Source of the DNA: Mucisphaera calidilacus
Lineage (GTDB): Bacteria > Planctomycetota > Phycisphaerae > Phycisphaerales > Phycisphaeraceae
Reading direction: 5' to 3'
Length of the DNA stretch: 32,000 bases
Assembly (NCBI RefSeq): GCF_007748075.1
Contig: NZ_CP036280.1
Span: 210,001-242,000 of the forward strand
The translations under genes and the position numbers were made by a program. Shown here in pieces: positions 6,160 through 27,496 of this stretch (positions are counted from its first letter, which is position 1; each line of letters begins with the position of its first letter). Below the pieces are notes generated by a model. That model saw only the letters and a list, made by a program, of their open reading frames with translations. It ran no database searches and was not told where the DNA came from.

Positions 6160-7332
6160 TCAGTGCAGGAAGAAACGCACGCCCGACATCGCCATGGTCA
6201 TGCCGTGCTCGTCGGCGGCAGCCACGACGTCCTCGTCACGCTTGGACCCGCCGGCCTGAAGCACGGCCCGGACGCCGGTACGCGCCAGGCGGTCGATGTT
6301 GTCGCGGAACGGGAAGAAGGCGTCCGAGCTGCAGGCAAGGTGATCGAAACCGGCGAGGTAGTCGGCTCGCTCCGCCGCGCTGATCGGCTGTGGGTCAGCG
6401 GTCAGCCCCGCCGAGATCTGCTCGCGCTCGAAGGGGCCCAGCTCGTCCCAGCGGACATACTGATCGATGATGTTCACCTTCTCGGCACGCTTGAGCCCCG
6501 GCCTGAAGGGGAGTTCGAGCGTCCTGGGGTGCGTCTTGAGCAGCCACGCCTCCGCCTTGGTGCAGGCGAGCCGTGTGCAGGCGATGCGCGATTGCTGGCC
6601 GGCGCCGATGCCCACCGCCTGTCCCGCGTAGCCCAACGCTACGGAGTTCGACTGCGTGTGCTTGAGGGTGACCGTGGCGACGAGCAGCGTCTCGATCGCC
6701 TCGGGGGAGAAGGCCTTGTTCTTCGTCACGACGTTGCCGAGCAGCTCCGGGCCGATCGGCTGGTCGTTGCGCTTCTGGCTCAGCCGCATGCCGAACTCCA
6801 GCCGGTCCTCCATCTCAGGCGGCTCGTAGCCCGGGTCGATCTCGAGCATCAGGTAGTTGCCGCCTTTCTTGGCCCGGATGATCTCGAGCGCCTCCGGCTC
6901 GTAGCCCGGCGCGATGATGCCGTCGGATACCTCCGGCTTGAGCAGGCGCGCGAGCGACGCGTCCGCAGGCTGACTCAGCGCGACGAAATCGCCGAACGAC
7001 GCGGAGCGGTCGGAGCTGCGTGCCTTGGCGTAGGCCGAGGCGATCGGCGAGAGATTGGGCCCGTCATCGATCAGATGCCCGGCGCAGAAGACTTCGGAAA
7101 GCGGGCCCGCGACCGCCGCACCGGCGGGGCTGACGTGCTTGTAGGAGGCCGCGGCGGGCTTGCCGGTGGTCTGGGCCAGCTCGCGGACCAGCTGCCAGCC
7201 ACGCAGGGCATCAAGAATGTTGATGAAACTCGCGGCCCCATTGACCACGCGAAGCGGCGTATCCCCTTGTGGCATCTGGATTTGAGCGGGTTGTTGGTTG
7301 GGGTTGCACCCGTAACGCAGCGCGATGTCCAT
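6160..7332 (-). CDS. purH: phosphoribosylaminoimidazolecarboxamide (AICAR) formyltransferase, single-domain PurH-like protein without the IMP cyclohydrolase/MGS domain
   Basis: LRYGCNPNQQPA, SYKHVSPAG, GIGAGQQSRI, SSDAFFPFRDNI, AVLQAGGSKRDEDV and the terminal GVRFFLH all match the AICARFT half of PurH. The protein is 390 aa and starts directly at the AICARFT region. Confidence 0.8.
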   Translation of the reverse strand: MDIALRYGCNPNQQPAQIQMPQGDTPLRVVNGAASFINILDALRGWQLVRELAQTTGKPAAASYKHVSPAGAAVAGPLSEVFCAGHLIDDGPNLSPIASAYAKARSSDRSASFGDFVALSQPADASLARLLKPEVSDGIIAPGYEPEALEIIRAKKGGNYLMLEIDPGYEPPEMEDRLEFGMRLSQKRNDQPIGPELLGNVVTKNKAFSPEAIETLLVATVTLKHTQSNSVALGYAGQAVGIGAGQQSRIACTRLACTKAEAWLLKTHPRTLELPFRPGLKRAEKVNIIDQYVRWDELGPFEREQISAGLTADPQPISAAERADYLAGFDHLACSSDAFFPFRDNIDRLARTGVRAVLQAGGSKRDEDVVAAADEHGMTMAMSGVRFFLH

Positions 7333-7539
7333 CAGATTGTCTCCAGATTCTGGGATGACCGAGCTTGTCCAGACGGTTTAGACCGGTCGAGAGGTAAGAG
7401 CGTACCTGAAGTTCCGCCAAAGTCGACTGGACGAGGCTTATACAATGTGTTTCACTTGTTATACGCCTCAATCCACTGTGAGGAAGACCGAGAGATCCCC
7501 CTTCCAATCACCCGGCAGCACGTTCACCAGGAGTCCATC

Positions 7540-10500
7540 GTGTCGCAAACCCATGCTCCATCGTCCGATAATACGGTTCGCTTCGAGTCGCTTGAGGATC
7601 GTGTGCTGCTCAGCGCGGTGACGGAAAACCCCACGGGGTTCACCGTATCGCTGGGTGAGGGTCAGTCGATCCTTCTGGACTTCGACGAGGACGGCCCGGT
7701 TGCGTACGACGTTCAGGCCGACCTGATGGAGGTCTTCGCCCAGAGCAGCGCCAGCACCTCGTCGCTGCCCGTGCCCGTGGGGACCCAGCCCGAGGGCGCA
7801 CTCTCCGGCAAGATCGTCTACGTCCACGCCGGCCACGGCTACACCTGGACCAACAACAGCTTCTGGACCACCCAGCGCGGTGAGGGCTTCGAGATCGTCG
7901 AAGACATGGGCAACATGGATCAGATGAACTTCCTCATCGATCAGCTCTGGAACGCCGGCGCGACCGTCGTCCCGCTGCGTCCGGCACAGCACCAGATCAA
8001 CGAGGTCGTGCTCGATAACGTCGACGCTGAGGTGACCTTCGTCGGCAGCTGGAACAACAGCTCCTCGTCGATCTACTACGGCGAGTCGGGCGAGACGCCT
8101 TACCGCTGGGCCTCAACCTCGGGCACCGAGACCGCCTACGCCCGATACACGCCCGACATCCCCGAGGCGGGTTACTACCCCGTCTACACCTTCGCCCGCC
8201 ACGGCAGCGACCGCGTCGAGCAGCTCTACAAGGTCCACCACACCGGCGGCATCACCGAGGTCACGGTCGATCACTCGAAGGTCGGCAGCGGCTGGGTCTA
8301 CCTCGGCAACTTCTACTTCGACGAGGGCACCGACGGCTACGTCGATATCTCGAACCGCAGCGACCAGTCCGGCGTCGTGATCGCCGACGCGATCCGCTTC
8401 GGCAACGGGATGGGCGACAGCCTGCGCAACGGCTCGCCCTCGGGCTACGCCCGCGAAGACGAGGCCGGTCTCTACTGGATGGAGGCACTCGTCCGCGAGT
8501 CCCAGGGCATCTCGACCAGCGAATACCGCTCGTCCTCGGATGACCGCAGCGCGACCGTCAGCGCCTCGCCCCGCTGGGCCGAGTACATGAACCGTGAGGC
8601 CGGCGGCTCCTTCTCCGACCGCGTCTTCCTCTCCTACCACTCCAACGCCGGCGGCGGCCGCGGCGCCGTCGGACTCCACAACACCAGCAGCGGCGGCAAC
8701 ACCCCCAACCAGTTCGAGTGGGCGGAGCTGACCGGCGCGCACCTCAACGACGACATGCAGGCGATCGGCTCCCCGCCGCTTGAGCACCTCTGGTCCAACC
8801 GCTCGACCAACACCTATCAGGCTTCGTTCAACTACGGCGAGATACACAATGCCTATATCGGCGGCGAGTTCGACGCCACCATCCTCGAAGTCGCCTTCCA
8901 CGACAGCCAGTTCGACTCCGAGCTGATGCGTGACCCGGTCATGCGTCAGTGGGCGGCGCGCGCCTCGGTGCACGCGATGATCGAGTACTTCGACAACCGT
9001 AACAACGTGGCGAGCACCGTCGAGGCACCCGAGGCCGTCACCGGCGTCTCGGCCATGACCAACGCCCAGGGCGACGTGACACTCAGCTGGGACAAGCCCG
9101 CGTTCGGCGGCGTCAACGGCGACGCCGCGACCGGCTACCTCATCCAGACGTCCTTCGACGGCTACGGCTTCGACGGCGGCACCTACGTCGCCGGCGGTAA
9201 CACCCTCACCCACACCTTCGACGACCTCGACGGCGCCAACGGCGTCCACTACTTCCGCGTCCTGGCCGTCAACAACGGCGGCGTCTCCCTCGACTCCGAA
9301 ACCGTCGCGGCCAACCCCGGGCAGGCCGGCGACCCCTCCATCCTCATCGTCAACGGCTTCGACCGCTTCGACCGGACCCTCAACCCGCAGATCACCTACA
9401 GCGTCGGCACCATCGACCGCGTCCGCCCGCAGTGGATGAACAGCTTCGACTACACCGTGCAGCACGCCGACGCCATCCACGCCTACGACCCCTCGATCGG
9501 CTTCAACTCGGTCCAGAACGAGGATGTCATCAACGGCACCGTCGACCTCAACCTGTACACCACGGTCGTCTGGATCCTCGGCGAGGAATCGACCGCCGAC
9601 GCGACCTTCGACGCCACCGAGCAGGCGCTCGTGAGCTCCTTCGTCGGCAGCGGCGGCAACCTCTTCGTCTCCGGCTCCGAGATCGCTTACGACCTCGACG
9701 GCGTCAACAACGGCCAGAGCTTCTTCAACAACACGCTGGGTGCGACCTACGTCAGCGACGACTCCGACTCGAACACCGCGGCGGGTGTCAGCGGATCGAT
9801 CTTCGCCGGCATCTCGCTGAACTTCGACGACGGCGACGTCGTCTACGACGTCGACTCGCCCGACGTCATCTCCGCCACCAACGGCTCACTCGCCGCCATG
9901 ACCTACGGCGGATCGAGCGGCGGCGGCGGACGACCGGGCGGCGGAGGCGGCGGCGTAGCCGCGATCCAGCTCGAGGCCTCAGGCGGCCAGGGCGGCGTGG
10001 TCATGCTCGCCTTCCCGTTTGAGTCCATCGTCAGCCAGGACGACCGCCACGACGTGATGGCCGCGGCGCTCGGCTTCCTCGGCGCCGACCCGATCGAGCG
10101 CCCCGACGCACCGACCGACCTCGACGTCGCCATCTACACCAACCAGGCGGTCGTGAGCTGGACCCAGCCCGACGACCCGACCGCGGTCGGCGTGCACGTC
10201 GAACGCGCGGTCGCCGACGGCCTCTTCGAACGCATCACCACCGAGCCCCTGACCGACCCGGTCTTCCTCGACACCGGCCTGCTCGAGGGCATCGCGGTGG
10301 CCTACCGCGTCGTCTCCGTCGACGCAGAGGGCGTCACGAGCCTGCCGCTCGAGGTGGTCGAGGGCACGCCCCCGACCGCCACCTCGGTCGTCGCCGACAT
10401 CGACACACCGCTCTACCAGCTCGACGGCACTTGGTCCTCCTTCGTCGGGCTGGGCTACGAGGGCAGCTTTGCGCACGCCGGAACCGTCGGTGCTCCGTCG

Positions 10501-11787
10501 ACCGCCACCTGGAACCTCGACCTGGAACAGGCCGGTCACTACGAGGTCTCGGTCTTTATCCCCGAAGCGCTGATGATGGTTCCGCTGGGCCATGGCTCCT
10601 ACACCCTGACGACCACCAGCGGCACTGCGGCCGCCAGCGTCGATCAGGCTCAGTCACCCACAGGCGGCTGGCTGTCACTCGGCAGCTTCGACCTCGCTGC
10701 CGGCGAGTTCGAGCTGATCCTCGACGCCGCCGCATCGACCGACGGCTCCTTCGTGGTGGCCGACGCCATCCGTGTGGCGACCGTCACCGTCGACCAATTC
10801 CAGGACCCCGCCGAGGTCGTCGAAGTCGTCGTTGGCTCCGAAACCTGGACCCAGGCCTTCCTCGATCAGATCGATACGGGACGCGGGCTCGGCTACGGCA
10901 TGCCCGGCGGCGCGGGCCAACTCGCCTCACTGCCCTGGTCAAGCCTCAACACGATCTCGCTCGTCTTCAGCGAGGCGGTCTACGTCACACAGGATGACTT
11001 CGACTTCACCTGGAACGACGGCGCTGCCGAAGAGGCCGTCGTCTTCGTCTACGACGCGGCCGCGCACACCGCAACGTGGGTCTTCGACAGCAACGCCTAC
11101 ACGCCCGCCGGCGTGGTCACGGTCCAGCAGGTCGGCACGGTGCTCGACCACCAGGGCGTCGAAGCCGATACCGACTGGGTCAACGGCGTCTCCGAGGCCT
11201 CGGGCAACGGCATCGCGGGCGGCATGATGAACTACCTCTTCAGCGTGGTCGCCGGCAGCGCGGATGGCGACACCATGATCGACGCCAACGACATCGACGC
11301 GGTGCTCCGTGCCACGCAGGGCAACGGCGCAACGGCCTTCACCGACCTCGACGGCTCCGGCACCACCGACGCCGACGACGCCAACCTGCTCGTGATCGAC
11401 ATCCTCGGCACGCAGTTCGGCGACGCGAATCTCGATCAGTCCGTCGACCTGCTCGACCTCTCCGCACTGGCATCGAGTTTCGATGCGACCGACGGCGACT
11501 GGGCCAGCGGCGACTTCAACGGCGACGGCAACGTCGACCTGCTCGACCTCTCGCTGCTCGCTTCGAACTTCGGCTACACGGCCCCGGTCCCCGCGCCGGC
11601 GCTGGCGCAGGCAACCGTGGCTGAGCCGCAAATCGCCTCGAAGACCCAGCAGACCCAGCAGGACCAGTCACGCGTCTGGTCGCAGTCGCGTCAGCACGCC
11701 CAGCAGCAGCCGCTGACAACACGCGCCGGTGACCTCGTGGTTGATGCCGAGGAGGACGAGGCCGTCTTCGGTCTCTGGGAAAGCTGA
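7540..11787 (+). CDS. large multidomain surface/secreted-type protein. It has a LEPR-XLL-like N-terminus, an amidase_3-like domain split by a golvesin-C/Xly-like carbohydrate-binding insertion, FN3-like modules, a second CBD-like module, and C-terminal dockerin/EF-hand-like repeats.
   Basis: GTG at 7540 is in frame with ORF 6163..11787 and is preceded by AGGAG at 7529-7533. Everything upstream is antisense to purH. Motifs seen:
- RFESLEDRVLLSA at residues 14-26.
- GKIVYVHAGHGY, FLSYHSNAGGGRG and ILEVAFHDS (MurNAc-L-Ala amidase-like).
- Two VxFxGxW...G.Y.V...GGW..LG.F...ADAIRF/V modules.
- GDANLDQSVDLLDLSALA and GDFNGDGNVDLLDLSLLASNFG repeats. Confidence 0.8.
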   Translation: MSQTHAPSSDNTVRFESLEDRVLLSAVTENPTGFTVSLGEGQSILLDFDEDGPVAYDVQADLMEVFAQSSASTSSLPVPVGTQPEGALSGKIVYVHAGHGYTWTNNSFWTTQRGEGFEIVEDMGNMDQMNFLIDQLWNAGATVVPLRPAQHQINEVVLDNVDAEVTFVGSWNNSSSSIYYGESGETPYRWASTSGTETAYARYTPDIPEAGYYPVYTFARHGSDRVEQLYKVHHTGGITEVTVDHSKVGSGWVYLGNFYFDEGTDGYVDISNRSDQSGVVIADAIRFGNGMGDSLRNGSPSGYAREDEAGLYWMEALVRESQGISTSEYRSSSDDRSATVSASPRWAEYMNREAGGSFSDRVFLSYHSNAGGGRGAVGLHNTSSGGNTPNQFEWAELTGAHLNDDMQAIGSPPLEHLWSNRSTNTYQASFNYGEIHNAYIGGEFDATILEVAFHDSQFDSELMRDPVMRQWAARASVHAMIEYFDNRNNVASTVEAPEAVTGVSAMTNAQGDVTLSWDKPAFGGVNGDAATGYLIQTSFDGYGFDGGTYVAGGNTLTHTFDDLDGANGVHYFRVLAVNNGGVSLDSETVAANPGQAGDPSILIVNGFDRFDRTLNPQITYSVGTIDRVRPQWMNSFDYTVQHADAIHAYDPSIGFNSVQNEDVINGTVDLNLYTTVVWILGEESTADATFDATEQALVSSFVGSGGNLFVSGSEIAYDLDGVNNGQSFFNNTLGATYVSDDSDSNTAAGVSGSIFAGISLNFDDGDVVYDVDSPDVISATNGSLAAMTYGGSSGGGGRPGGGGGGVAAIQLEASGGQGGVVMLAFPFESIVSQDDRHDVMAAALGFLGADPIERPDAPTDLDVAIYTNQAVVSWTQPDDPTAVGVHVERAVADGLFERITTEPLTDPVFLDTGLLEGIAVAYRVVSVDAEGVTSLPLEVVEGTPPTATSVVADIDTPLYQLDGTWSSFVGLGYEGSFAHAGTVGAPSTATWNLDLEQAGHYEVSVFIPEALMMVPLGHGSYTLTTTSGTAAASVDQAQSPTGGWLSLGSFDLAAGEFELILDAAASTDGSFVVADAIRVATVTVDQFQDPAEVVEVVVGSETWTQAFLDQIDTGRGLGYGMPGGAGQLASLPWSSLNTISLVFSEAVYVTQDDFDFTWNDGAAEEAVVFVYDAAAHTATWVFDSNAYTPAGVVTVQQVGTVLDHQGVEADTDWVNGVSEASGNGIAGGMMNYLFSVVAGSADGDTMIDANDIDAVLRATQGNGATAFTDLDGSGTTDADDANLLVIDILGTQFGDANLDQSVDLLDLSALASSFDATDGDWASGDFNGDGNVDLLDLSLLASNFGYTAPVPAPALAQATVAEPQIASKTQQTQQDQSRVWSQSRQHAQQQPLTTRAGDLVVDAEEDEAVFGLWES

Positions 11788-11859
11788 GGCAGAACGGCCC
11801 AGATCGACCCGAGAAACCGATAGGATGAGCACCTGACCGCGAGGTTTCGCGCTTGTCGC

Positions 11860-13755
11860 GTGGGATCGCTGCTGAGGTTGTGCATGTCATCCCATGTTCA
11901 TGGCATCGGAGAAGTAACGGCGACGCAGTCGGTCACCGAGGACCCCTTCGGCTACGACGGCCCGCCGGACCAGTTCCTCGCCCGCTTCCTGGCCTCCCAG
12001 CGTGCCGCCGGCCTGAGTCTCGGCGGAGCACTCCTGCGCCCCGAACGCGAGGGCGTCGTGGAAGTGCTCGCGCTCGACCCCTCCCCGACGTCGGGCGGCG
12101 GGAGCCGCCCCGCATGGCTCACCAGCGCCACCCAGGGCGTCGCCACCGTCATGGCCGAGGGCCAGGCACGCGTCCTGCCCTTTCAGGACACCGGCGGGAT
12201 GTACCTCACCGGACCGAGCGGTTACCTCGGCCTCCTGCCCCTGCGTGGCGAGGGCCCGGTACGAGGCGTCGCCGCCTACCTCCTCGACGAAACCACCCAG
12301 CACGGCGCCGAACTCGCCGTGCGCCGGCTCGAACTGACCTGCGCCTCACTCGGCCTCTACGAGCTCAAGCGGACCTTCGAACGCAAGCAGGCCGACCTCG
12401 AACTGATGGGCGGGGCGGTCTCGCTGCTCGCCTCCGTCTCCGAACACGACCGGTTCAAGGCCGCCGCCATGGCCGCCTGCAACGAACTGGCCCAGCGCAC
12501 CAAGGCGATGCGCGTGAGCTTCGGCGTCCTCCGCGGCCGCTACATGCGCGTGCTCGCCATGAGCCAGACCGAACAACTCAACCGCAAGATGCGCCTCATC
12601 CAGGACATCGAGAGCGCGATGGAGGAGTGCCTCGATCAGGACCTCGAGATCCTGCACCCCGCGCCCGACAACGCCGACTTTGTGAGCCGTGCCACCGCCG
12701 ACCTCGCCGAAAGACACGGCCCCTCACGCATCCTCACCATCCCCATGCGGCTCGATGGCGTGCCCGAAGCCGTGATGCTCATCGAGCTCCCCACCGATCA
12801 GGGACTCACCGCCCGCCAGGTCGAGGCGCTGCGGCTGACCTCCGACCTGCTCGCACCGGCACTCATCCGCCAGAGCCGGCAGGACCGCTGGTTCGGCGCG
12901 CGGTTCGCGGCCTTCTGCAAACGCCACGCCGGGGAGATCGTCGGCCCGAGACACACCTGGGCCAAACTCACCGCCATCGCGCTGCTGATCGTGCTGCTCG
13001 TCTCCGTGCTCTACCCGGCGCGCTACCGCGTCGAGGGCACCTTTGTCATCAAGGCCTCCGAACGCCAGATCGTCGCAGCGCCCTTCGGCGGGTATCTCGC
13101 CGAGGTGCACGTCGAACCGGGCGACAACGTCGTGGCCGGCCAGACCGTGCTGGCGACCCTCGACACCGCCGACCTCACGCTCGAACTCGCCTCCCTGCTG
13201 GCGGAGATCGAGAGCTACCGCAAGGACGAGGCCATGGCACGACGCGACGGCGACATCGCCGGCCAGCAGATCGCCCAGGCACGACGCGACGAGGCCCAGG
13301 CCCAGGCCGACCTCATCGCCTACCGCATCGAACAGGCCGTCATCCGGGCACGCGTCGACGGCGTCCTCGTCGAGGGCGACCTCAAGCGGCAGATCGGCGT
13401 CGCCCTCGAACTCGGCCAGCCGATGTTCGAGGTCGCACCCCTCGACACCCTCTACGCCGAACTGAGCGTCCCCGAGACACGCGTCACCGAGGTCGAAGTC
13501 GGCCAGACCGGACTGCTGGCGTCGGTCGCGCGCCCCGGCACCTACCTGCCCTTCGCCGTCGACCGCATCGACCCGGCCGCCGAGGTCGTCGAGGGCCAGA
13601 ACGTCTTCAAGGTACGCCTGAGTTTCGACGAGCAACCCGCCGAGCTCCAGCCCGGGATGCAGGGCGTCGGCAAGGTCGACGTCGGCCGCAGGCCCCTCAT
13701 GTACATCTGGACCCGTGACGCGATCCGCTGGCTGCGCATGCAGCTCTGGATCTGA
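11860..13755 (+). CDS. HlyD-family periplasmic adaptor (membrane fusion protein) with a cytoplasmic N-terminal domain of about 360 aa (possibly tandem GAF-like)
   Basis: A single TM segment (WAKLTAIALLIVLLVSVLY) is followed by HlyD hallmarks: VAAPFGGYLAEVHVEPGDNVVAGQTVLATLDT (lipoyl-like), a coiled-coil stretch, then IRARVDGVLVE and a beta-barrel tail. An alternative start is the ATG at 11884. The GAF assignment for the N-domain is a guess from its alpha/beta pattern only. Confidence 0.75.
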   Translation: MGSLLRLCMSSHVHGIGEVTATQSVTEDPFGYDGPPDQFLARFLASQRAAGLSLGGALLRPEREGVVEVLALDPSPTSGGGSRPAWLTSATQGVATVMAEGQARVLPFQDTGGMYLTGPSGYLGLLPLRGEGPVRGVAAYLLDETTQHGAELAVRRLELTCASLGLYELKRTFERKQADLELMGGAVSLLASVSEHDRFKAAAMAACNELAQRTKAMRVSFGVLRGRYMRVLAMSQTEQLNRKMRLIQDIESAMEECLDQDLEILHPAPDNADFVSRATADLAERHGPSRILTIPMRLDGVPEAVMLIELPTDQGLTARQVEALRLTSDLLAPALIRQSRQDRWFGARFAAFCKRHAGEIVGPRHTWAKLTAIALLIVLLVSVLYPARYRVEGTFVIKASERQIVAAPFGGYLAEVHVEPGDNVVAGQTVLATLDTADLTLELASLLAEIESYRKDEAMARRDGDIAGQQIAQARRDEAQAQADLIAYRIEQAVIRARVDGVLVEGDLKRQIGVALELGQPMFEVAPLDTLYAELSVPETRVTEVEVGQTGLLASVARPGTYLPFAVDRIDPAAEVVEGQNVFKVRLSFDEQPAELQPGMQGVGKVDVGRRPLMYIWTRDAIRWLRMQLWI

Positions 13756-13763
13756 GGTGAACG

Positions 13764-15965
13764 ATGTCGACGCGCCGTCCCCTCTTCAGCGAGTCGTGGT
13801 ACCGGGTGGCGGAGATGGCGCCCCGACTGCGCCCGCAGATCGACACCTACCGCCAGCACTACCGCGGACGGCTCTGGCACGTGCTCCGCGACCCCTCGAA
13901 CAACAAGTTCTTCAGGCTCGATGAGGCCTCCTACCGATTCGTCGCGATGCTCAACGGCCGGCGGACCATCCGCGAGGTCTGGGAAGCCTGCTGCGACCAG
14001 CTCCAGGACCAGGCGCTGACTCAGGGCGAAGCCATCCAGGTCATCGGCCAGCTCTACACCTCCAACCTGCTCGACGCCGACGTCTCCGCCGACACCGCCG
14101 GCATCTTCGACCGCTACAAGCAGCGACGCCAACGCGAGGTGTCGGGCTACATGATGAACCTGCTCTTCGCGCGGATCCCCATCTACGACCCCGACGCGTT
14201 CCTCGACAAGTGGGTGCACCTCACACGATGGGCCTTCGGTCCCGTCGGCCTCATCCTCTGGTGCCTGCTCGTCGGCGCGGGGCTGTTCGTGGCGATCGGA
14301 CGCTCGGACGCCCTGCTCAGCCAGGCATCCTCGGTGATCGCGCCGCGCAACCTCTTCTGGCTCTACATCGCGATCGTCGTCATCAAGCTCTGGCACGAGA
14401 TGGGACACGGCTTCGCCTGCAAGCACTTCGGGCAGCAGCGCCACGCCGGCGGCGAGGTCCACACCCTCGGCGTCATGCTGCTCGTGCTCGTCCCCGTGCC
14501 CTACGTCGACGCCTCCTCCTCGTGGGCGCTGCGCAACAAGTGGCACCGCTTCTGGGTCGGCGCCGCGGGCATGTACTTCGAACTGGCGGCGGCGGCGCTC
14601 GCCACCTTCGTCTGGGCCGCCACCAACGCGCAGACGTCCTTCTACGGCGTCCCGGTCCACGCCCTCGCCTACAACGTCATGTTCATCGCAGGCGTCAGCA
14701 CCATCCTCTTCAACGCCAACCCGCTCATCCGCTTCGACGGCTACTACATGCTCTCCGACGCGCTCGAGGTCCCCAACCTCATGCAGCGGTCGAAGGACTA
14801 CCTCTACTACCTCGTACGCAAGTACCTCTACGGCGTACGCCGGCCCATGAACCCCGCCCACGTGCACGGCGAAGCGCCCTGGCTCTTCAGCTACGCGATC
14901 CTCTCGAGCATCTACCGCGTCTTCCTCCTCACCTCGATCCTCCTGTTCGTCGCCGACCAGTTCTTCTTCCTCGGCATGATCTTCGCCATCTCCGGCCTCA
15001 TCGGCTGGGTGGGCACGCCCCTCTGGAAGTGGGTCAAGTACCTCGCCACCAACCCCGAACTCGCGCGCACACGCTCACGAGCCGTCATGGCCTCCGCGAC
15101 GCCGATCGTGCTCCTGCTCGTCCTGCTTGGCGTCGTGCCCGCGCCGGAACACGGACGGGCCGAGGGCGTGGTCGAGGCCGATCGCCGAGCGGTCGTCTTC
15201 GCCGGCGCCGACGGCGTGCTGGATACGATCGCCGAGCAGTCATCGACCGTCCCGCGAGGCGGCCTCCTGATGCGCGCGCACAACGCACAACTCGAGAGCC
15301 AGCAACGCGAGCTCGTGGCACGTCTCGAGCAGATCCGCGTGCAGCTCGCGCAGGCACGCACCGAGAGCACGGCCGAGGCCCAGGCACTGCTCGAGCAGCA
15401 GACGGCCCTGCGTCAACGGCTCGACCGGGTCAATCAGCAGATCGTCTCGCTCGAGGTCACCGCGCCGTTCGAGGGCCGCTGGGACGCCCAGCCCGAACTG
15501 GTGCCCGGCCTCTACCTCCGGCAGGGCGAAGCGATCGGCACCTTCCTCGACGACCGCGACCCGCGCGTGCGCATCATCGCCGACCAGTCACTCGGCCCGC
15601 GTCTCTGGGCCCGGTACGCCGAGGGCCTGCTGTCCGTCGAGTTCCGCGTCTCGGGCCTGCCCGAGACCACACTCAACGGCGCCATCACCCGCGTCGCCCC
15701 CGCCGGCCAGAGCCAGCTCCCCAGCCCCGCGTTATCCATGGGCGCCGGCGGCCTGATGCCCACCGACCCCGAAGACCCCAATGGACAACGCGCCGCAGAA
15801 CCCTTCTTCGAGGTCCGTATCACCCCCGAGATCGAAACGGAACACCACGGCTACCTGCGCCCCGGCCAACGCGTCGTCGCACGCTTCGCGCTCGGCTACC
15901 GACCGCTGCTCTGGCAGTGGTGGGACGCCCTCTCACGCCTGCTCCAGGAACGGTTCCAGGTCTGA
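13764..15965 (+). CDS. fusion protein: PqqD/RRE-like N-domain + M50 (site-2 protease) zinc metalloprotease membrane domain + C-terminal HlyD-like adaptor domain
   Basis: - HEMGH at nt 14394-14408, inside a TM helix.
- NANPLIRFDG (NxxPxxxxDG, the second S2P motif) at 14712-14741.
- N-terminal FFRLDEASYRFVAMLNGRRTIREVWEAC...GEAIQVIGQLYTSNLL resembles the PqqD family.
- From about residue 463: RAEGVVEA..., a coiled coil, then LEVTAPFEGRW, which is HlyD-like.
- The gene starts 8 nt after the upstream stop. Confidence 0.8.
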   Translation: MSTRRPLFSESWYRVAEMAPRLRPQIDTYRQHYRGRLWHVLRDPSNNKFFRLDEASYRFVAMLNGRRTIREVWEACCDQLQDQALTQGEAIQVIGQLYTSNLLDADVSADTAGIFDRYKQRRQREVSGYMMNLLFARIPIYDPDAFLDKWVHLTRWAFGPVGLILWCLLVGAGLFVAIGRSDALLSQASSVIAPRNLFWLYIAIVVIKLWHEMGHGFACKHFGQQRHAGGEVHTLGVMLLVLVPVPYVDASSSWALRNKWHRFWVGAAGMYFELAAAALATFVWAATNAQTSFYGVPVHALAYNVMFIAGVSTILFNANPLIRFDGYYMLSDALEVPNLMQRSKDYLYYLVRKYLYGVRRPMNPAHVHGEAPWLFSYAILSSIYRVFLLTSILLFVADQFFFLGMIFAISGLIGWVGTPLWKWVKYLATNPELARTRSRAVMASATPIVLLLVLLGVVPAPEHGRAEGVVEADRRAVVFAGADGVLDTIAEQSSTVPRGGLLMRAHNAQLESQQRELVARLEQIRVQLAQARTESTAEAQALLEQQTALRQRLDRVNQQIVSLEVTAPFEGRWDAQPELVPGLYLRQGEAIGTFLDDRDPRVRIIADQSLGPRLWARYAEGLLSVEFRVSGLPETTLNGAITRVAPAGQSQLPSPALSMGAGGLMPTDPEDPNGQRAAEPFFEVRITPEIETEHHGYLRPGQRVVARFALGYRPLLWQWWDALSRLLQERFQV

Positions 15966-17965
15966 TGGTCGGCTCGACCCCCGATTCCGACCTCGCCGCA
16001 CCGCCCAGCCAGCTCTGGCGCAACCTCTCGCGACCGGCCAAACCGCCCAAGCTCCCGCGCGGCCTCGACGGCTTCTGGAACCTCGCCACCGGACGCATCG
16101 TCCCGCTCATCCCGCGCACCCGTCGCTACCTCCAGCGCGCCCAGCGGATCCACGAGGCCGCCGAGGCGCACCGCACCGCCGCCGTCCCCGCACTCGACCA
16201 GCGGGTCGAGGACCTGCGAGCCACCTTCCGCAAGGGGCGCGCCGAACGCGAGCACGTCGACGAGGCCATGGCCCTGATCGTGGAGCTGGCCGACCGCACG
16301 CTCGGCATGCGGCCCTACGTGGTCCAGGTCGCCGCCGGCCTGTCGATGTTCGACGGCTGCCTCGCCGAGGTGGCCACCGGCGAGGGCAAGACGCTCATCG
16401 CGACCCTCCCCGCGATCCTCGCCGGCTGGCGCGGCCGCGGCTGCCACGTCGTCACCGTCAACGACTACCTCGCCCAACGCGACGCACAGACCATGGGGCC
16501 GCTCTACCGCAAGGCAGGCCTGCGCGTCGCCTCCGTCCACCAGGAACTCAAAGACGACGAACGCCGACAGGCCTACCTCGCCGACGTCACCTACCTCACC
16601 AACAAGGAAGTCGCCGCCGACTACCTGCGCGACCGGCTCAAGCAGGGCAAGGCACGCGGGCTCGCCTCGACACTCGTCGACGCCATCACCACCGGACGCG
16701 GGTCCTATGGCCGGGGGATGGTCCAGCGCGGGCTCGCCTGCGCCATCGTCGACGAGGCCGACTCCGTGCTCATCGACGAGTCGGTCACACCCCTGATCAT
16801 CTCGACCGAGGCCGACAACGAAGACCAGGCCCAGGCGTTCAAACAGGCGGTCGCCATGGCCGACCAGCTCGAACGCGACCGCGACTACAAGGTCGTCGCC
16901 CGCTACAAGGAAATCGAGCTGACGCGCGCCGGACGCGAACGCTCACGCGAGATCGCCGAGTCCCTCGACCTCTCAGGCGTCTGGTCGACGCCACGCGGCC
17001 GCGAAGAACTCGTGCACCAGGCCCTCTCCGCTAAAGAGCTCTTCCTGCCGGGCCAGCAATACGTCATCCAGGAGGGCAAGGTGGTGATCGTCGACGAGTC
17101 GACCGGCCGCCTCATGCCCGACCGTTCCTGGCGGCACGGCCTCCACCAGGCCGTCGAGGCCAAGGAGGGGCTGGACGTCAGCGGCGCCAAGGAGACACTC
17201 GCCCGCATCAGCTTCCAGCGCTTCTTCCGCATGTACGAGAACCTCTCGGGTATGACCGGCACGGCATGGGAAGAACGCTACGAGTTCTGGGAGGTCTACA
17301 GCCTCGCAACCGTCCGATTCCCGACGCACCGACCCCGGATCCGCGAGGAGATGCCCGACCGCGTCTTCGCCTCCGCCGAGGCACGCTGGCTCGCGGTCGT
17401 CGAGGAAATACGCCAGCTCCACGCCACCGGGCGCCCGGTCCTCATCGGCACACGCTCGGTCGAGGCCAGCGAGAAACTCAGCTCGCTCCTCGCCGCGCAA
17501 GGGATCCACCACGAGGTGCTCAACGCCGTACGCCACGCCGAGGAAGCCGCCATCGTCGCCCGGGCCGGCGAACGAGGCCGCGTCACCGTCGCCACCAACA
17601 TGGCCGGCCGAGGCACCGACATCAAGCTCTCCCGAGGCGTCGCGGAACTCGGCGGGCTCGCGGTCATCGCGACCGAACGCCACGAGTCAGGCCGCGTCGA
17701 TCGGCAGCTCTTCGGACGCGCCGGCCGCCAGGGCGACCCCGGCTCAGCCGTCTGCTTCGTGAGCCTCGAAGACGAACTGATCAAACGCTACACACGCGCC
17801 GTCGACCGCGCGATCCTCTCGAACTACGCCGGCAACCCCGTCGCCGCCAGCTACCTCTTCAACCAGGCCCAGGGCCGAGCCCAGCGCATGGCACGGGCCA
17901 ACCGCAAGGGCGTCCTGGAACACGACCACTGGCTGGAGAAACACCTCGGCTTCGCCCCGGAATAG
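15965..17965 (+). CDS. SecA-like DEAD-motor ATPase (NBD1-PPXD-NBD2), truncated after the start of the helical scaffold
   Basis: The ATG at 15965 overlaps the upstream TGA (TGATG). Motifs: LAEVATGEGKTL (Walker A, nt 16373-16396), VVTVNDYLAQRD, IVDEADSVLIDESVTPLIIS (DEAD box at 16751-16762), FQRFFRMYENLSGMTGTA, TNMAGRGTDIKL and TERHESGRVDRQLFGRAGRQGDPGS. The protein is 666 aa and ends shortly after RKGVLEHDHW. This is the last part of the 14210..17965 ORF in the track. Confidence 0.85.
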   Translation: MVGSTPDSDLAAPPSQLWRNLSRPAKPPKLPRGLDGFWNLATGRIVPLIPRTRRYLQRAQRIHEAAEAHRTAAVPALDQRVEDLRATFRKGRAEREHVDEAMALIVELADRTLGMRPYVVQVAAGLSMFDGCLAEVATGEGKTLIATLPAILAGWRGRGCHVVTVNDYLAQRDAQTMGPLYRKAGLRVASVHQELKDDERRQAYLADVTYLTNKEVAADYLRDRLKQGKARGLASTLVDAITTGRGSYGRGMVQRGLACAIVDEADSVLIDESVTPLIISTEADNEDQAQAFKQAVAMADQLERDRDYKVVARYKEIELTRAGRERSREIAESLDLSGVWSTPRGREELVHQALSAKELFLPGQQYVIQEGKVVIVDESTGRLMPDRSWRHGLHQAVEAKEGLDVSGAKETLARISFQRFFRMYENLSGMTGTAWEERYEFWEVYSLATVRFPTHRPRIREEMPDRVFASAEARWLAVVEEIRQLHATGRPVLIGTRSVEASEKLSSLLAAQGIHHEVLNAVRHAEEAAIVARAGERGRVTVATNMAGRGTDIKLSRGVAELGGLAVIATERHESGRVDRQLFGRAGRQGDPGSAVCFVSLEDELIKRYTRAVDRAILSNYAGNPVAASYLFNQAQGRAQRMARANRKGVLEHDHWLEKHLGFAPE

Positions 17966-17980
17966 CCGCCGTCTCGCCGA

Positions 17981-18814
17981 TTATTCAGCCGGCTCAAGCG
18001 ACGCCAGGCGAACCACAAATCCCGAGGGCAGACCGCCGTCGGGATTGTCGATCTCAAAGACACAGCGGAACGTCTGCGAAGCCGGGTCGATGATCGCGTC
18101 CACGATCGTGAGCCTGCCCCGCAGCGACTCGGACGCGGGCGCCGACCCGATCAGCCCGTACATCGCGTTGAGCTTCATGTCGCCGTACACCTCCGCCGGC
18201 AGGTGAATCTCGGCACGGATCGGGCTGATGCTCACGATCGCCAGCAGCGAGTCCTCGGTCTGGACCGTCTCGCCCGACTCCACCGTCCGCCGCAGCACCA
18301 CGCCGTCGAACGGCGCGTCCAGCCGGTAACGATCCAGACGCTCCAGCTCCAACTCGTAACGCTTCTCCGCGATCAGCTTGTTGTCCTTCGCCAGCTGCAG
18401 GTCAGCGGTCGCCTGATCACGCTGCACGCGCGTCCGCCGAACCTCCCACTCGCTGGCCGCGTCCTTCTCGAAGCTCGTGGTCACCCGGTCAAGCAGGATC
18501 TGCGCCTCCTCGAGGGCGTACTGCGCTCGCAGGATCTGGGCGTCGCTCTCCGCCTGCAGCCTCGACGACTCGGTCGACAGCCGCTGAATCGCGTCGTCCA
18601 TCTGCAGCAGCGGTTGACCCTCCTTGACATACTCGCCCTCCACCACCAGCACCTGCTCGACGATCCCGTCCACCGGCGCCGAAAGCTGAACCTGCTGGGC
18701 CGGACGCGTCACGCCCTCGTAACGCGACAGGTTGATCCGGCTCTGACCGAGCACGGGAAGCGAGGTCACAAAACCGACGATCAGGCCGGCGACGATGGCA
18801 TAGTGGTACTTCAT
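17981..18814 (-). CDS. HlyD/efflux-type periplasmic adaptor subunit, with no adjacent pump
   Basis: ATG at 18814 (MKYHYAIVAGLIVGFVTSLPVLGQ signal/anchor). VQLSAPVDGIVEQVLVVEGEYVKEGQPLLQMDD, a coiled coil, then LDAPFDGVVLRR. The upstream 196 codons of ORF 17981..19402 overlap ruvA antisense and I rejected them. Confidence 0.75.
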   Translation of the reverse strand: MKYHYAIVAGLIVGFVTSLPVLGQSRINLSRYEGVTRPAQQVQLSAPVDGIVEQVLVVEGEYVKEGQPLLQMDDAIQRLSTESSRLQAESDAQILRAQYALEEAQILLDRVTTSFEKDAASEWEVRRTRVQRDQATADLQLAKDNKLIAEKRYELELERLDRYRLDAPFDGVVLRRTVESGETVQTEDSLLAIVSISPIRAEIHLPAEVYGDMKLNAMYGLIGSAPASESLRGRLTIVDAIIDPASQTFRCVFEIDNPDGGLPSGFVVRLASLEPAE

Positions 18815-18887
18815 GCCCGCACGGTACCGCGAGGACGACCCGGGCGGCAAGGCGGCATCACCGCCACGCTGCGTGTACGCTGAGCGC

Positions 18888-19523
18888 ATGATCAGCCGGA
18901 TGCGTGGATTGCTGGAATCGGTGGCCGACGACCGCGTCGCCCTGAGCGTCGGACCGTTGAGTGTCGAGGTCCTCGTCCCCGCTGCCGAGCCCGAACGCTT
19001 CGAGGGATCCGTCGGCAGCGAGGTCACCCTCCACACCCTGCTGGTCATCGAGAGCCAGAACCAGGGCGCGAGCCTCACGCCACGCCTGCTCGGCTTCGCC
19101 TCGGCATCCGACCGCGCCTTCTTCGAGCTCTTCGTCACCTGCAAGGGCATCGGACACCGCAAGGCCCTGCGGGCCATGGCCCTCCCCGCCTCGACCATCG
19201 CCACCGCCATCACCGAACGCGACCTCGTCACCCTCCAGAGCCTGCCCGAGATCGGCAAGCGGACCGCCGAGACCATCGTCGCCACCCTCTCGGGCAAGGT
19301 CGACCGCTTCGCCGTCGCCGACCCCGACCGACCCGCCACACCCGCCGCATCAGGCGACACGGGCCCTCTCCCCGAAGGCCCCGCGTCCGAAGCCGTCAGC
19401 ATCCTCGTGCAACTCGGCGAACCCCAGAATCAGGCCGTCGCCCTCGTCGAGAAGGCGATGCAGGCCGAACAAGACCTCGAAACCTCCGAGGCGATCCTCG
19501 CCGCCGTCTACCGCGCACGGTGA
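18888..19523 (+). CDS. ruvA: Holliday junction branch-migration complex subunit RuvA
   Basis: MISRMRGLL...V.L.VGPLSVEVLVP OB-fold start, FELFVTCKGIGHRKALRAM and LPEIGKRTAETIV helix-hairpin-helix motifs, a flexible linker and a C-terminal domain III. I chose the ATG at 18888. Confidence 0.85.
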   Translation: MISRMRGLLESVADDRVALSVGPLSVEVLVPAAEPERFEGSVGSEVTLHTLLVIESQNQGASLTPRLLGFASASDRAFFELFVTCKGIGHRKALRAMALPASTIATAITERDLVTLQSLPEIGKRTAETIVATLSGKVDRFAVADPDRPATPAASGDTGPLPEGPASEAVSILVQLGEPQNQAVALVEKAMQAEQDLETSEAILAAVYRAR

Positions 19524-22278: not shown

Positions 22279-25200
22279 TCAGGCCGCTCCCCGTCGTCGC
22301 AGCAAGGCACAGCCGAGGCCGAGAATCGTCAGTCCGGCAGGCTCGGGGATCGAGTAGAGGGCGACGTCGTTGCCGTCTCCGCCGCGATAGGTGATGAACA
22401 TGTCGATGCCGTTGAAACGCGTGACCAACGCGCCCTCGGCAAGCCCGTCGAACGTGCCCGTCAACAGGCCATCAACATGGATAAAGGTGTAGCTCTCGCC
22501 GAGCACCGCGTTGTAGTAATCACCCGAGAACTCGAGCTGACCCATCAGCGTCAGGTCGCCGGTGACCTGTAACCCCTGGATGTATGAATAGAGACTGATC
22601 AGCAGTTCAGCCTCGGTGCTGAGTTGGGTGTAATCCCCAAGAACGAAGCCGCGGGTGCGCCCCAACGGCTGGAACGTGCCGGTGTCATGGTCAAAGTCAC
22701 CCTCGATCCGCCGCGTAAAGAGCAGATCGCCATTGAAGTCAAACGTCCCTTCCTCTTCAATCACGACGCTCCCCGTCTCGAGCGAATCGCCATTGAACTC
22801 GAACTCGGCACCCGGCGCAACCTCAATGCTGCCCGATGTTTGTATGAAATTACCCGAGGCCCGCAGCCGGCCGTTTTCGGCGCGAACGATGCCTCCATTC
22901 TGGATGTCAACCTCCAGCGATCCGAAGCCTCGGATGGTGTTATCACGATTGAGGATGCCACCAGAGGCAGCGTCCGGATGTTTGCGGATGATCGCCTCGT
23001 GGTTGCTGAGAACAATCTCCCCGCCTCCGGTCAGCATCACCGTGTCATTCAGATACAGGATCTCGTGGTTCGCGAAGCCGCTGTTCTCGAAGGTGATCAC
23101 GCCCGTGTTGTGGATGTCACCCCCGATCAGCCGGTCGCTGATCGACACGGTCATCGTGCCTTCGAGCGTGAAATCTTCGAGTAGCCCGCCGACGATCACG
23201 CCCCCCGGCGCGATCCGGAGCGTCCCGCCGCGGATCGTGCCGCTCAGATCCAGAAGTGACCCCGCCGGCACCTCGACGACGCCCCGGTTGTCGATGTCGG
23301 CCTTGATCGTGCCCCGTCCGTCGATGCGGATCGTGTTGTCGATGTTGATCAGCCCGCCGGTCGTCTCGCCGAACTGAGCGATCCACGCGTCGGAGCTGTT
23401 GAGAATCACCGCGCCGCCGCCGTCGAGTGTCACCTGCCCATCCAGCCAGAGCGCCTCGACATTGGAGAATCCCGAGTTCTCATAGGTGATGACGCCGGTG
23501 TTCGTGATCCCATTACGCACGACCAGCTCATCAATGCTGACCCGAAACATCCCTGACATCTCAACGTCTTCCAGGCCGTTGCCGTCGATCCAGACGTTGC
23601 CCTCGGACACCAACCGGCCGCCCACGAGGCTCCCACCCAGCCGCAGCCGGGCACCGTCGCGGATGACGACTTCTCCGTTGGCGTTGTCCGTCTCCGAGAG
23701 GATCAGCCGCCCGCCCGAAGCGATCACCGTGTCGTGATTGACAAGCGGGACGTTGATGCTGCCGTTGCCCGAGATCGTGTTGTTGAGGTTGACCAGCCCA
23801 CCGACCCCCTCGACCTGATTGATCCGCGCATCAGCGCTGGTCATGATCACCTCGCCGTTGCCCGTCAGCGTGACCTGCCCGTGCAACCCGAGGATCTCGT
23901 TGTTCGCGAATCCGCTGTTCTGGAAGCGAATCGTGCCCCGGTTGTCCAGCGTGCCCCTGACCGGACGGTCGTCCATGCTGACCGTCAGGGTGTCCACATT
24001 CGTCACGTCCTCGATCAGCCCGCCGATGATCAGCCCGCCCGGCTCGATGTCCAGCGTGCCGCCGCTGAGGGTCCCGCCGAGGTTGAGTACCGAACCACCA
24101 CCTATCGCCACCGTGCCCGTGTTGGTCACGTCGACGAGGAGGTTGCCCCGACCGCTGGTCCGGATCGTGTTGTCGATGTTGACCAGTCCACCGGTCCCGC
24201 TCGCCTGGGTGATCCTTGCGTCGCCACTGTTGAGGATCACCGTGCCCCCGCCCGTCAGCGTCACCTGGTCATGCAGGCCAAGGTTCTCATAGTTGGAGAA
24301 TCCGCTGTTCTCGAACGTGATCAGACCCGTGTTGTTCAGGGTCCCCGCCGCGCCAAGGTCGCTGCTGCTCACCGTCACCGTGCCCGTCGTGGTCACGTCT
24401 CGGATGCCCACCCCCGCGATCAGCCCGCCCGGTTCGCCAACGATCACGCCGTTCGACAACTCGCCCAGAAGGTGCAGCCGCCCGTTTCCAGCGATCTCGA
24501 CCTCCCCGCCCGTGTTGTCCGTCGTCCCGATGTAGAGAGTTCCGTTCTCGGCGCGGATCAGACCCTGATTCGTGATCGCACTGCTGATCCTGCCCACACC
24601 ACGCAGCGTGTTGTCGACATTTACGATCTCGCCGCTGCCCGACGACGGCTCGATCCGAGCCTCGCTGCTGTTGAGCACGAACTCCCCGCCGCCGGTCAGC
24701 GTGACCTGTTCAACAACACCCAGCACCTCGTTGTTCGAGAATCCGCTGTTCTGGAACGTGATCGTGCCCGTGTTGTTGATCGCTCCGGCCATCTTCGCAT
24801 CGTCGAGACTGACCACCAGCAACCCGTTGACCGTTAGGTCACGGAAGGCCTCGCCCGAAATCTTCCCGCCCTCGCCGGTCAGCGTGCCGCCCGACAACGC
24901 ACCGATTAGGCTCAGCCGTCCGTTGCTCGCGACCTGAACCGCTCCGCCCGTGTTGTCGGTTGTCGCAAGCAGCAGCGTGCCGTTCTCCGCGCGAATCACG
25001 CCGGCATTGGTGACGCTCGCCGTGATCCGGCCGTTGCCGCGGATGGTGTTGTCCGTGTTGATCAGCCCGCCCGTGCCGAATAGCTGCGAGATCTTTGCGT
25101 CGCTGCTGGTCATCAGGACTTCACCGCCGCCTGTCAGCGTCACCGGCCCGTTAAGACTCAGACGCTCCGTGTTCGAGAAGCCATGGTTCTGGAAGGCGAA

Positions 25201-25536: not shown

Positions 25537-25683
25537 ATCCAGATTCCTCACTCCAAAACTGATTAAATCGCTAGACGAGTACCCGCATCATACTACCTTA
25601 TGATTTAAACTCCACACCCTTTCCGCAATTTCTGCCAACCTCGGGTAAATACATGGCTCGCTCCTCGGCGGCACCCTGTAGCG

Positions 25684-25911
25684 TCACGGATCCGCCTCGT
25701 CCAGCACCTGCGTGAACACCGTCTGACCGCTCCGGAGCATCGCGCTCAGATAAGGCCGACACATCCCGCAGCAGGTCGATGCTCCCGTTCGCAGCGCCAG
25801 CTCATCGAGATTCAACCCGTCGCGCTCGGCCTGCGCAAGCAGGTCCGTAAACGCCTGACGCGTGCAGACACAGCGATCAATACAAATGGGGGGGCAGGAA
25901 TCAGGCATCAT
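25684..25911 (-). CDS. BFD-like [2Fe-2S]-binding domain protein
   Basis: 75 aa with the Cys pattern C-x-C ... TGASTCCGMCRPYL, typical of bacterioferritin-associated-ferredoxin-like domains. The start overlaps the stop of the upstream gene (TAATG). Confidence 0.7.
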   Translation of the reverse strand: MMPDSCPPICIDRCVCTRQAFTDLLAQAERDGLNLDELALRTGASTCCGMCRPYLSAMLRSGQTVFTQVLDEADP

Positions 25912-26681: not shown

Positions 26682-26688
26682 CCGTGGA

Positions 26689-27423: not shown

Positions 27424-27496
27424 GGTCTTTCTTTCTCCGATTCAATAAGGTTGAAAGCCGACCGCACACCGCGTGCGGCCGGCATCAAAACAACAC

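Follow-up and report, generated by a model that had tools for sequence, protein, structure and literature searches.

We analysed a 32,000-nucleotide window of the Mucisphaera calidilacus (Phycisphaerae) genome (NZ_CP036280.1, positions 210,001 to 242,000), in which three consecutive forward-strand genes at 11860-17965 encode a membrane fusion protein (MFP, the HlyD-type periplasmic adaptor) with a GAF domain, a fusion of a PqqD-like domain, a putative RiPP recognition element (RRE; RiPP, ribosomally synthesized and post-translationally modified peptide), with an M50 protease and a second MFP domain, and a short SecA paralogue. Comparative genomics suggests an export function for this cassette. 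We think it probable that it forms the core of a tripartite, TolC-dependent, type-I-like machine for export and leader processing of LEPR-XLL proteins. The cargo would consist of large or giant surface or extracellular proteins which have no Sec signal and carry a LEPR-XLL leader. A stronger proposal, for which we see evenly balanced chances, is that the cassette defines a new secretion class, combining a SecY-independent SecA paralogue, a conduit of three MFPs and TolC, an RRE-guided M50 leader peptidase and a GAF gate.

The GAF-MFP gene spans 11860..13755, with the annotated start at the ATG at 11884 giving 623 aa (QDU70370.1). It is followed by the RRE-M50-MFP gene at 13764..15965 (733 aa, QDU70371.1) and by the SecA paralogue gene at 15965..17965 (666 aa, QDU70372.1), and the three products are identical to these database entries. 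The first gene ends with a TGA at 13753-13755, 8 nt before the ATG at 13764, while the second and third genes share a TGATG stop/start overlap at 15963-15967, so the tight same-strand packing described in the original prediction is borne out by the coordinates. In public annotation the first protein is named 'efflux RND transporter periplasmic adaptor subunit' or 'MdtN', the second 'hypothetical protein' or 'Peptidase family M50', and the third 'preprotein translocase subunit SecA'. A scan of 7200-19000 for promoters and terminators gave no signal above chance. The region has 67% G+C, and many open reading frames (ORFs) in alternative frames or antisense merely shadow the conservation of the real genes.

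Conservation of the gene set was evaluated with the M50-MFP alignment as query. A genome scan with one genome per species gave at least 597 loci, of which the best 80 were examined, and a scan of metagenome contigs gave 78 further non-duplicate loci; 159 loci in total were analysed. These come from at least seven phyla and include Planctomycetota, Verrucomicrobiota, Lentisphaeria, Nitrospira, Desulfobacterota, Fibrobacter and Alpha-, Beta- and Gammaproteobacteria, with a conserved cassette gene order. The SecA-like gene directly follows the M50-MFP gene in 129 of 140 loci with enough flank, and the GAF-MFP gene lies upstream of it in 130 of 137. Reverse seeding from two short SecA-like proteins recovered the same trio. 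Both the synteny check and the neighbourhood check that the original prediction had called for thus turned out positive.

The other partners were scored in the 64 loci with at least 4 kb on both sides. A small stand-alone MFP is found in 55 of these and a TolC-like outer membrane factor (OMF; Pfam OEP) inside the cluster in 22. In the window the small MFP gene lies on the reverse strand at 17981..18814 (277 aa), convergent with the SecA-like gene and 15 nt away from it. Its product has an N-terminal membrane anchor and scores 133.6 bits with RND_mfp, above the TIGR01730 cut-off, and from its recurrence this MFP is assigned as the fourth conserved member of the cluster.

The original prediction had stated that no pump, TolC or precursor gene was present. 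The part concerning the pump holds: clustering of the flanking ORFs in the 159 loci gave no recurrent ABC, RND or MFS transporter, no such pump is a conserved neighbour in seven annotated replicons, and the only ABC-like neighbour cluster (4 loci) is a soluble ABC-F protein. The suspicion that a conventional pump sits just outside the cassette was thereby rejected. The part concerning TolC holds for the window only, where no TolC-type OMF gene is encoded within the 32 kb, and the part concerning the precursor is probably wrong, as described below. The conserved synteny, the missing pump and the intact catalytic sites described below argue for a real, self-contained system. The suggested SecA-driven, non-canonical export machine, with the M50-HlyD protein as both membrane part and protease, is therefore supported in its core, and its component list was incomplete, since the fourth member, the small MFP, had been missed.

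These data also bear on the possibility that we are dealing with small-molecule or metal efflux, or with an efflux adaptor operon placed by chance next to an unrelated SecA paralogue. The annotation of the first gene as an efflux RND adaptor or MdtN speaks for this, but no RND, ABC or MFS partner recurs in the flanks of the 159 loci, the gene order is kept across phyla with translational coupling, and the cassette is repeatedly co-localised with giant LEPR-XLL genes. Furthermore, the preprotein cross-linking domain (PPXD) of the SecA-like protein, the RRE and the protease indicate that the substrate is a polypeptide. Efflux is poorly supported and we consider it extremely improbable.

The third gene encodes a SecA-family ATPase of which Pfam recognises SecA_DEAD, SecA_PP_bind and P-loop_SecA. 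It comprises the first nucleotide-binding domain (NBD1), the PPXD (residues 288-398, nt 16826-17158) and NBD2 with the complete ATPase motif set, i.e. Walker A GEGKT (residues 139-143, nt 16379-16393), DEAD (263-266, nt 16751-16762), GRGTDI (548-553) and GRAGRQG (584-590), all on the forward strand. The alignment to Bacillus subtilis SecA covers only residues 14-605 of about 840. Of the scaffold helix just the initial ~28-37 residues (625-661) are kept, and neither a wing domain nor a two-helix finger nor a C-terminal tail follows. The structural model (pTM 0.72) accordingly ends in a single helix at 625-661, and it matches SecA structures, including that of B. subtilis, with a TM-score of 0.70-0.73 and 41% identity; the engineered E. 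coli truncation SecA-N68 (PDB 5K9T) is among the matches. As all of the nearest 120 homologues are 640-697 aa long, the early stop is a family trait and not the mark of a pseudogene. The truncated SecA-like motor of the original prediction is thus a full motor with PPXD which stops early in the scaffold helix.

Compared with canonical SecA and SecA2, the protein shares NBD1, PPXD, NBD2 and all ATPase motifs, but it stops ~35 residues into the scaffold helix, its gene always follows an M50-MFP gene, and it has a family-specific N-terminal extension and C-terminal tail. Unlike SecA2 it has no SecY2 or Asp partners, and all NCBIfam SecA and SecA2 equivalogs score below cut-off (best 604.6 vs 814 bits). 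SecA is universal in bacteria. An ordinary chromosomal secA is therefore expected in the bacteria whose annotated replicons are described below, and the short form would be an accessory paralogue.

Two further regions of the SecA-like family are conserved. The C-terminal tail (17900-17962, residues ~646-666) reads ...R-K-x-V-L-x-x-D-x-W-L-x3-L-G-F-A, with D654, W656, L661 and F663 invariant in 25 sequences, and a P-K-L-P-x-G-L-D-x-x-W motif is conserved at the N-terminus. Both motifs are candidate docking sites for the membrane partners. Several short SecA-like proteins are entered in RefSeq as 'prepilin peptidase' or as 'DEAD/DEAH box helicase' (P0185, P0206; L165:14210-16126; L166:15059-17083), while the M50-MFP goes by 'PqqD family peptide modification chaperone' or by 'HlyD family efflux transporter periplasmic adaptor subunit'. 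Such naming is inconsistent and probably misleads.

In SecA-SecY complexes (3DIN, 5EUL) the scaffold and the two-helix finger help to engage SecY. The SecA-like protein keeps the polypeptide clamp, i.e. the PPXD, and lacks the finger, the wing and most of the scaffold. The chief rival explanation is a two-step route in which the SecA-like protein, as an accessory SecA, would target LEPR-XLL proteins to SecYEG, the M50 protease would act as leader peptidase, and the three MFPs and the OMF would only carry the protein from the periplasm to the outside, as MacAB-TolC does with periplasmic substrates. Accessory SecA2 paralogues that use SecYEG are well established, motor and PPXD are ~41% identical to those of canonical SecA, and the cluster encodes no channel-like protein. 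On the other hand, the finger, the wing and most of the scaffold are missing throughout a family of 640-697 aa, the leaders have no hydrophobic core for recognition by the SecY lateral gate, and neither secY2 nor accessory Sec genes recur among the flanking ORFs of the 159 loci. We therefore regard a passage through SecYEG as unlikely.

The second gene encodes, in order, a PqqD-like winged-helix domain (residues 27-100, nt 13842-14063), a site-2-protease core with seven transmembrane (TM) segments (144-457, nt 14193-15134) and a periplasmic MFP domain with an alpha-hairpin (459-733, nt 15138-15962), all on the forward strand. The predicted topology is N-in with seven TM segments, which places the RRE in the cytoplasm and the MFP domain in the periplasm. 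The AlphaFold model (pLDDT 79.5) shows the winged helix, the seven-helix membrane core and the MFP domain with a short alpha-hairpin. The zinc-site motifs HEMGH (residues 211-215, nt 14394-14408) and NANPLIRFDG (317-326, nt 14712-14741) are both intact, and H211, E212, H215, N317, N319, P320 and D325 are invariant in 18 homologues of the fusion. The M50 Pfam score of the window protein is 21.2 against a cut-off of 27.2, while distant relatives pass with 34.8 and 30.1. With both zinc motifs in a polytopic membrane core, the fusion is classified as a site-2 protease of family M50.

The PqqD (PF05402) match is weak (E 0.0022, 18.7 bits vs cut-off 23.4), but PF05402 is recorded for many homologues, and in the model residues 27-99 form three strands and three helices in the PqqD/RRE topology. 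Pfam does not detect the C-terminal HlyD part of the window protein. The family profile of this part matches EmrA (6e-8) and MacA (3.6e-4), and the structure matches MacA, MexA and AcrA with E about 1e-11. Among the components named by the original prediction, the second HlyD-type domain and the intact M50 motifs are supported by these results, the candidate peptide-recognition domain fits by its modelled topology, and the worry that the M50 or SecA-like sites could be degenerate is removed, since the motifs of both enzymes are intact and invariant.

Ahead of the RRE sheet the fusion has a conserved W-Y-R-V-A-x-L-x-P-R-L-[RL]-S motif (window 13800-13845, residues 13-27; L084, L096, L027, L048; locus identifiers are ours), which takes the form L[RK]PRLLSS in some relatives. 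It is weakly LEPRxLLS-like, with 2.6-3.0 bits against the leader hidden Markov model (HMM) described below. This resemblance could be due to chance or reflect an autoinhibitory pseudo-substrate.

The original prediction compared the protease with YydH of the yydFGHIJ locus, which implies a small-peptide substrate. Like YydH and the daptide proteases, the fusion is an HExxH intramembrane metalloprotease whose best NCBIfam match is daptide_HExxH, and the PqqD-like domain suggests leader-peptide binding. One may thus propose that the RRE-M50 protein matures or exports a small ribosomal peptide whose precursor gene is unannotated. The scores are far below the cut-offs, however (daptide_HExxH 151 vs 300 bits; YydH/LiaK 21.8 vs 225). 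In contrast to the RiPP leader proteases, the fusion carries an MFP domain and has no precursor or tailoring genes: apart from DUF3467, the 159 loci yielded neither a conserved small ORF nor a radical-SAM enzyme or any other modification enzyme. The recurrent neighbours are instead giant proteins, and the neighbouring candidate substrates range from 400 to about 13,000 aa. A RiPP pathway is poorly supported and we consider it very unlikely; a large LEPR-XLL-type protein is favoured as substrate.

The GAF-MFP protein matches HlyD_3 and HlyD_D23 above the Pfam cut-offs (residues 391-600). A single TM segment (residues 366-384, nt 12955-13011) separates its cytoplasmic N-terminal region from the periplasmic HlyD/MFP domain (391-631, nt 13030-13752), whose family profile matches MacA, EmrA and MexJ with E 1e-18 to 1e-12. 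The cytoplasmic domain (residues ~205-335, nt 12472-12864, forward strand) is identified by profile as a GAF domain; the match is weak in the window protein (E 0.0056), and the domain is found in 21 of 22 family members (best E 2e-10). After the conserved partners, the most frequent neighbour is a REC-GGDEF-EAL gene for cyclic di-GMP turnover, located just upstream of the small MFP gene in 21 of the 159 loci (e.g. L015:371-2122). In combination, the GAF domain and this neighbour hint that the machine is under second-messenger control.

Directly upstream of the cassette is the gene that we take as the likely source of its cargo. It spans 7540..11787 on the forward strand, begins with a GTG preceded by an AGGAG site, ends 73 nt before the GAF-MFP gene and encodes a protein of the secreted type, 1415 aa long, with Golvesin_C, fn3 and dockerin domains. 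Neither a hydrophobic signal peptide nor a TM segment was found. The N-terminus, MSQTHAPSSDNTVRFESLEDRVLLSAV, contains the LEPR-XLL-type motif FESLEDRVLLSA, the leader comprising residues 15-26 (nt 7582-7617). Against the NCBIfam model NF012209 'LEPR-XLL' it scores 16.3 bits (residues 14-26). The earlier statement that no precursor gene is present is in this respect probably wrong. The literature searched mentions LEPR-XLL only in passing and assigns neither an export route nor a function to it.

A small HMM made from ten such motifs was used to search six-frame translations of all loci. The leader consensus is [FL]-x-L-E-x-L-E-[PDSEQ]-R-x-L-L-[SDTN]-[AG] with a short basic stretch before it. 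The motif was always within ~60 codons of the ORF start, usually after the basic stretch, and was not followed by a hydrophobic h-region. LEPR-type N-termini were found in 16 of 81 loci of the first set and in 14-16 of 78 loci of the independent metagenome set, and in both sets nearly all of these genes immediately adjoin the cassette. Some lie directly after the SecA-like gene or directly before DUF3467 or GAF-MFP, others within the cluster or in divergent orientation to the small MFP gene. The motif was present in 27 of 213 adjacent genes and, among the farther flank genes that served as internal control, in 4 of 317 (odds ratio 11.4, p = 4e-8). For two of these four 'far' genes (L121, L144) the position is between the M50-MFP gene and a TolC-like gene to which the automatic cluster span did not extend. 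In loci that contain the SecA-like gene, the adjacent LEPR-type ORFs are mostly at least 1,100 aa long, and many are cut by the contig end.

The association is most direct in five annotated alphaproteobacterial replicons, all of which have a giant protein of 8,148-12,918 aa directly upstream of the cassette and no ABC transporter in the operon. RefSeq names two of the giants 'LEPR-XLL domain-containing protein', and the other three carry the motif in their sequence. The Pontibrevibacter nitratireducens plasmid encodes a LEPR-XLL protein (10,603 aa), DUF3467, GAF-MFP, M50-MFP, SecA-like protein and small MFP, with 4-nt overlaps at four of the five junctions. On Methylosinus sp. C49 pMSC49a seven genes are consecutive, for an 8,847-aa protein with the leader ...IIFDTLEPRVLLNAD, DUF3467, GAF-MFP, M50-MFP, SecA-like protein, small MFP and, last, TolC. 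The Mesorhizobium ciceri plasmid has a 10,518-aa protein (leader ...HFEALEPRLLLSAD), DUF3467, small MFP, GAF-MFP, M50-MFP and SecA-like protein. The Pseudosulfitobacter plasmid has a LEPR-XLL protein (12,918 aa), GAF-MFP, M50-MFP, SapC, SecA-like protein and small MFP, and the Alisedimentitalea plasmid an 8,148-aa protein, GAF-MFP, M50-MFP and SecA-like protein. The start of this 8,148-aa 'calcium-binding protein' is probably annotated too far downstream, as the in-frame codons immediately ahead of the annotated ATG give VVEQLEPRLLLAAD (L172:226-330; NZ_CP123586.1, upstream of 183224).

A DUF3467 protein of ~100-125 aa is encoded just before GAF-MFP in 16 of the 64 fully flanked loci, i.e. directly before it in about a quarter of loci and across phyla (L019:7662-8036, L163:11851-12132, L165:9732-10052 and about 33 other loci); the window has no such gene. 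DUF3467 is the only small conserved gene and shows no leader/core pattern. Its profile gave no match in the PDB, and a SecB-like chaperone was rejected after hhalign against E. coli SecB gave a probability of 0.3. A SapC family gene (PF07277) lies inside the Pseudosulfitobacter cluster and beside the Alisedimentitalea cluster (L166:14245-15066; L172:558-1355).

The presence of an intact, predicted active protease among the core components, of a ligand-sensing GAF domain and of REC-GGDEF-EAL neighbours in 21 loci would also agree with a role in retention, release or quality control. By analogy with LapD/LapG-LapA, the cassette would hold, process or extract the N-terminus of giants that exit by another pathway, regulated through GAF and the cyclic di-GMP genes, and the SecA-like motor would pull and unfold the chain for proteolysis. 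RTX/serralysin domains usually mark classical substrates of the ABC-type type I secretion system (T1SS), and a Vibrio LEPR-XLL protein with such C-terminal domains, described in one paper, would fit this explanation. Yet the cargo genes are not accompanied by any other conserved secretion system, the MFPs and TolC are the only envelope components in the complete operons of Methylosinus and Pontibrevibacter, and Pfam detects neither RTX nor a T1SS signal in the window cargo. Such a role seems to us quite unlikely, a little more so than the route through SecYEG.

Relatives without the SecA-like gene extend the comparison. In a rare variant of the PVC (Planctomycetes-Verrucomicrobia-Chlamydiae) type (L031, L058, L121, L140, L144) the cluster encodes GAF-MFP, M50-MFP, a PEP-CTERM protein of ~290-320 aa, a LEPR-leader protein of ~400-460 aa, an OMF and the small MFP. 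The LEPR protein of these loci starts ...LLFE[SG]LE[SD]R[LI]LLSG. With cargo this short, the cluster may do without the motor or obtain it in trans.

Still more distant are M50-MFP genes with 25-28% identity, positive in Pfam for both M50 and HlyD, on 27 plasmids of E. coli, Citrobacter and Hafnia and in Azospirillum. They have the order giant protein, TolC, small MFP, MFP and M50-MFP, and no SecA-like gene. The giants are ~4,470 aa (enterobacterial) and ~3,400 aa (Azospirillum) long; their leaders read ALESRQLFDG or ALEPRFMFDAAG, with the N-termini ...FALESRQLFDGAA and ...MALEPRFMFDAAG. A 'TolC family' annotation is found in the clusters of Citrobacter and Azospirillum, as in that of Methylosinus. 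Since the SecA-less relatives share the association of M50-MFP with LE[PS]R leaders, it is older and broader than the SecA-like subclass, and since some of them carry giants, cargo size alone does not predict the presence of the motor.

On Citrobacter freundii pB18196_2 (L173, 267964-287728) the giant is an Ig-like protein of 4,465 aa with the leader RFALESRQLFDGAA. The enterobacterial plasmid copies are 99.9% identical to each other, and the Azospirillum relative is our locus L174. A link to the IncHI plasmid protein RSP was not established: no Salmonella plasmid is among the 27, and the RSP papers mention neither TolC nor HlyD genes.

In the export machine that we propose, the trio would form the inner-membrane and cytoplasmic core, to which the small MFP would belong, and the TolC-like OMF would be encoded elsewhere in the Mucisphaera genome. 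The leader, for which MSQTHAPSSDNTVRFESLEDRVLLSAVTENP is the candidate in the window, would first be captured by the cytoplasmic PqqD-like domain (RRE; within residues 1-135 of M50-MFP). The SecA-like ATPase would then thread the unfolded chain, N-terminus first, into an OMF-docked conduit that the membrane domains and periplasmic MFP domains of GAF-MFP, M50-MFP and the small MFP would form. The leader would be removed by the intramembrane zinc protease, and the GAF domain may gate the machine upon binding of a small ligand, possibly a cyclic nucleotide.

Such a machine would resemble type I secretion in several respects: MFP adaptors and, in the relatives, a TolC-like OMF are encoded together with the cargo gene, and the cargo is large, repeat-rich and without a Sec signal. 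As in the peptidase-containing ABC transporter (PCAT) class of T1SS, the leader is N-terminal and the inner-membrane machinery includes a protease. In contrast to T1SS, where an MFP is likewise present, the cassette has no ABC transporter; the ATPase role falls to a DEAD motor of the SecA family that bears a polypeptide clamp, and there are three different MFP-type proteins where T1SS has one. Where PCAT has a C39 cysteine peptidase fused to the ABC protein, the cassette has an intramembrane M50 zinc enzyme joined to an MFP, and the signal is N-terminal (LEPR-XLL), whereas that of RTX substrates is C-terminal. In a 2021 review of tripartite systems, ABC, RND and MFS proteins are the only partners named for the inner membrane (PMC8277102).

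The closest proposal in the literature comes from West-Roberts et al. (bioRxiv 10.1101/2023.11.21.568195), who found giant proteins of Omnitrophota and Actinobacteria with embedded SecA_DEAD/PPXD modules and proposed a role of these modules in the export of the giants themselves. These modules likewise combine a SecA motor and PPXD without scaffold or wing and are tied to giant extracellular proteins, the export role being a proposal only. They are part of the giant, however, whereas the motor described here, a protein of 666 aa, has its own gene in an operon with MFPs, M50 and, in relatives, TolC.

Several observations weigh against the export reading. The components include no known protein-conducting channel fold through which a polypeptide could cross the inner membrane. 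About 8% of M50-MFP genes have no adjacent SecA-like gene, and the motor is therefore not obligatory for the family. About 80% of the loci show no LEPR-type gene on the available sequence, for which contig ends and distant cargo genes could be the cause. In the window itself no OMF gene is present, and the LEPR-XLL score of the cargo candidate is just under the NCBI cut-off (16.3 vs 17). The Vibrio protein with RTX/serralysin domains also belongs here.

The cassette is a widespread gene set for which no earlier description was found, and it appears to be a new kind of secretion machinery. The original prediction knew of no described system of this composition, and the literature searched contains neither a description of the cassette nor a function for DUF3467, although a description in a subscription journal is still possible. 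With 8,000-13,000 aa in the replicons examined, LEPR-XLL proteins rank among the largest proteins of bacteria, and a dedicated machine, if the export reading is correct, would explain how such giants leave the cell without a Sec signal peptide. It would furthermore add a new type of engine to the tripartite envelope systems, so far driven by ABC, RND and MFS proteins only, and it would let SecA paralogues act outside the Sec translocon and site-2 proteases serve as secretion-leader peptidases. Carriers of the system are found among PVC bacteria, Nitrospira, sulfate reducers, rhizobia and roseobacters, with relevance for the biology of adhesion, biofilms and symbiosis and for the engineered secretion of very large proteins. 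As the SecA-less form is found on E. coli and Citrobacter plasmids, the proposal can be tested in tractable hosts.

Elsewhere in the window, a protein of 1090 aa (22279-25551) carries a signal peptide of the ordinary kind, which excludes it from the LEPR type. PADLOC anti-phage models gave no match for any of the four cluster proteins, by which an identity as defence system was rejected. A run of secreted-type genes on the reverse strand (25911-29002) encodes a prepilin-type N-methylation/DUF1559 protein (25911-26681), a DUF4465 protein (26689-27423) and a dockerin-containing protein of 501 aa (27497-29002).

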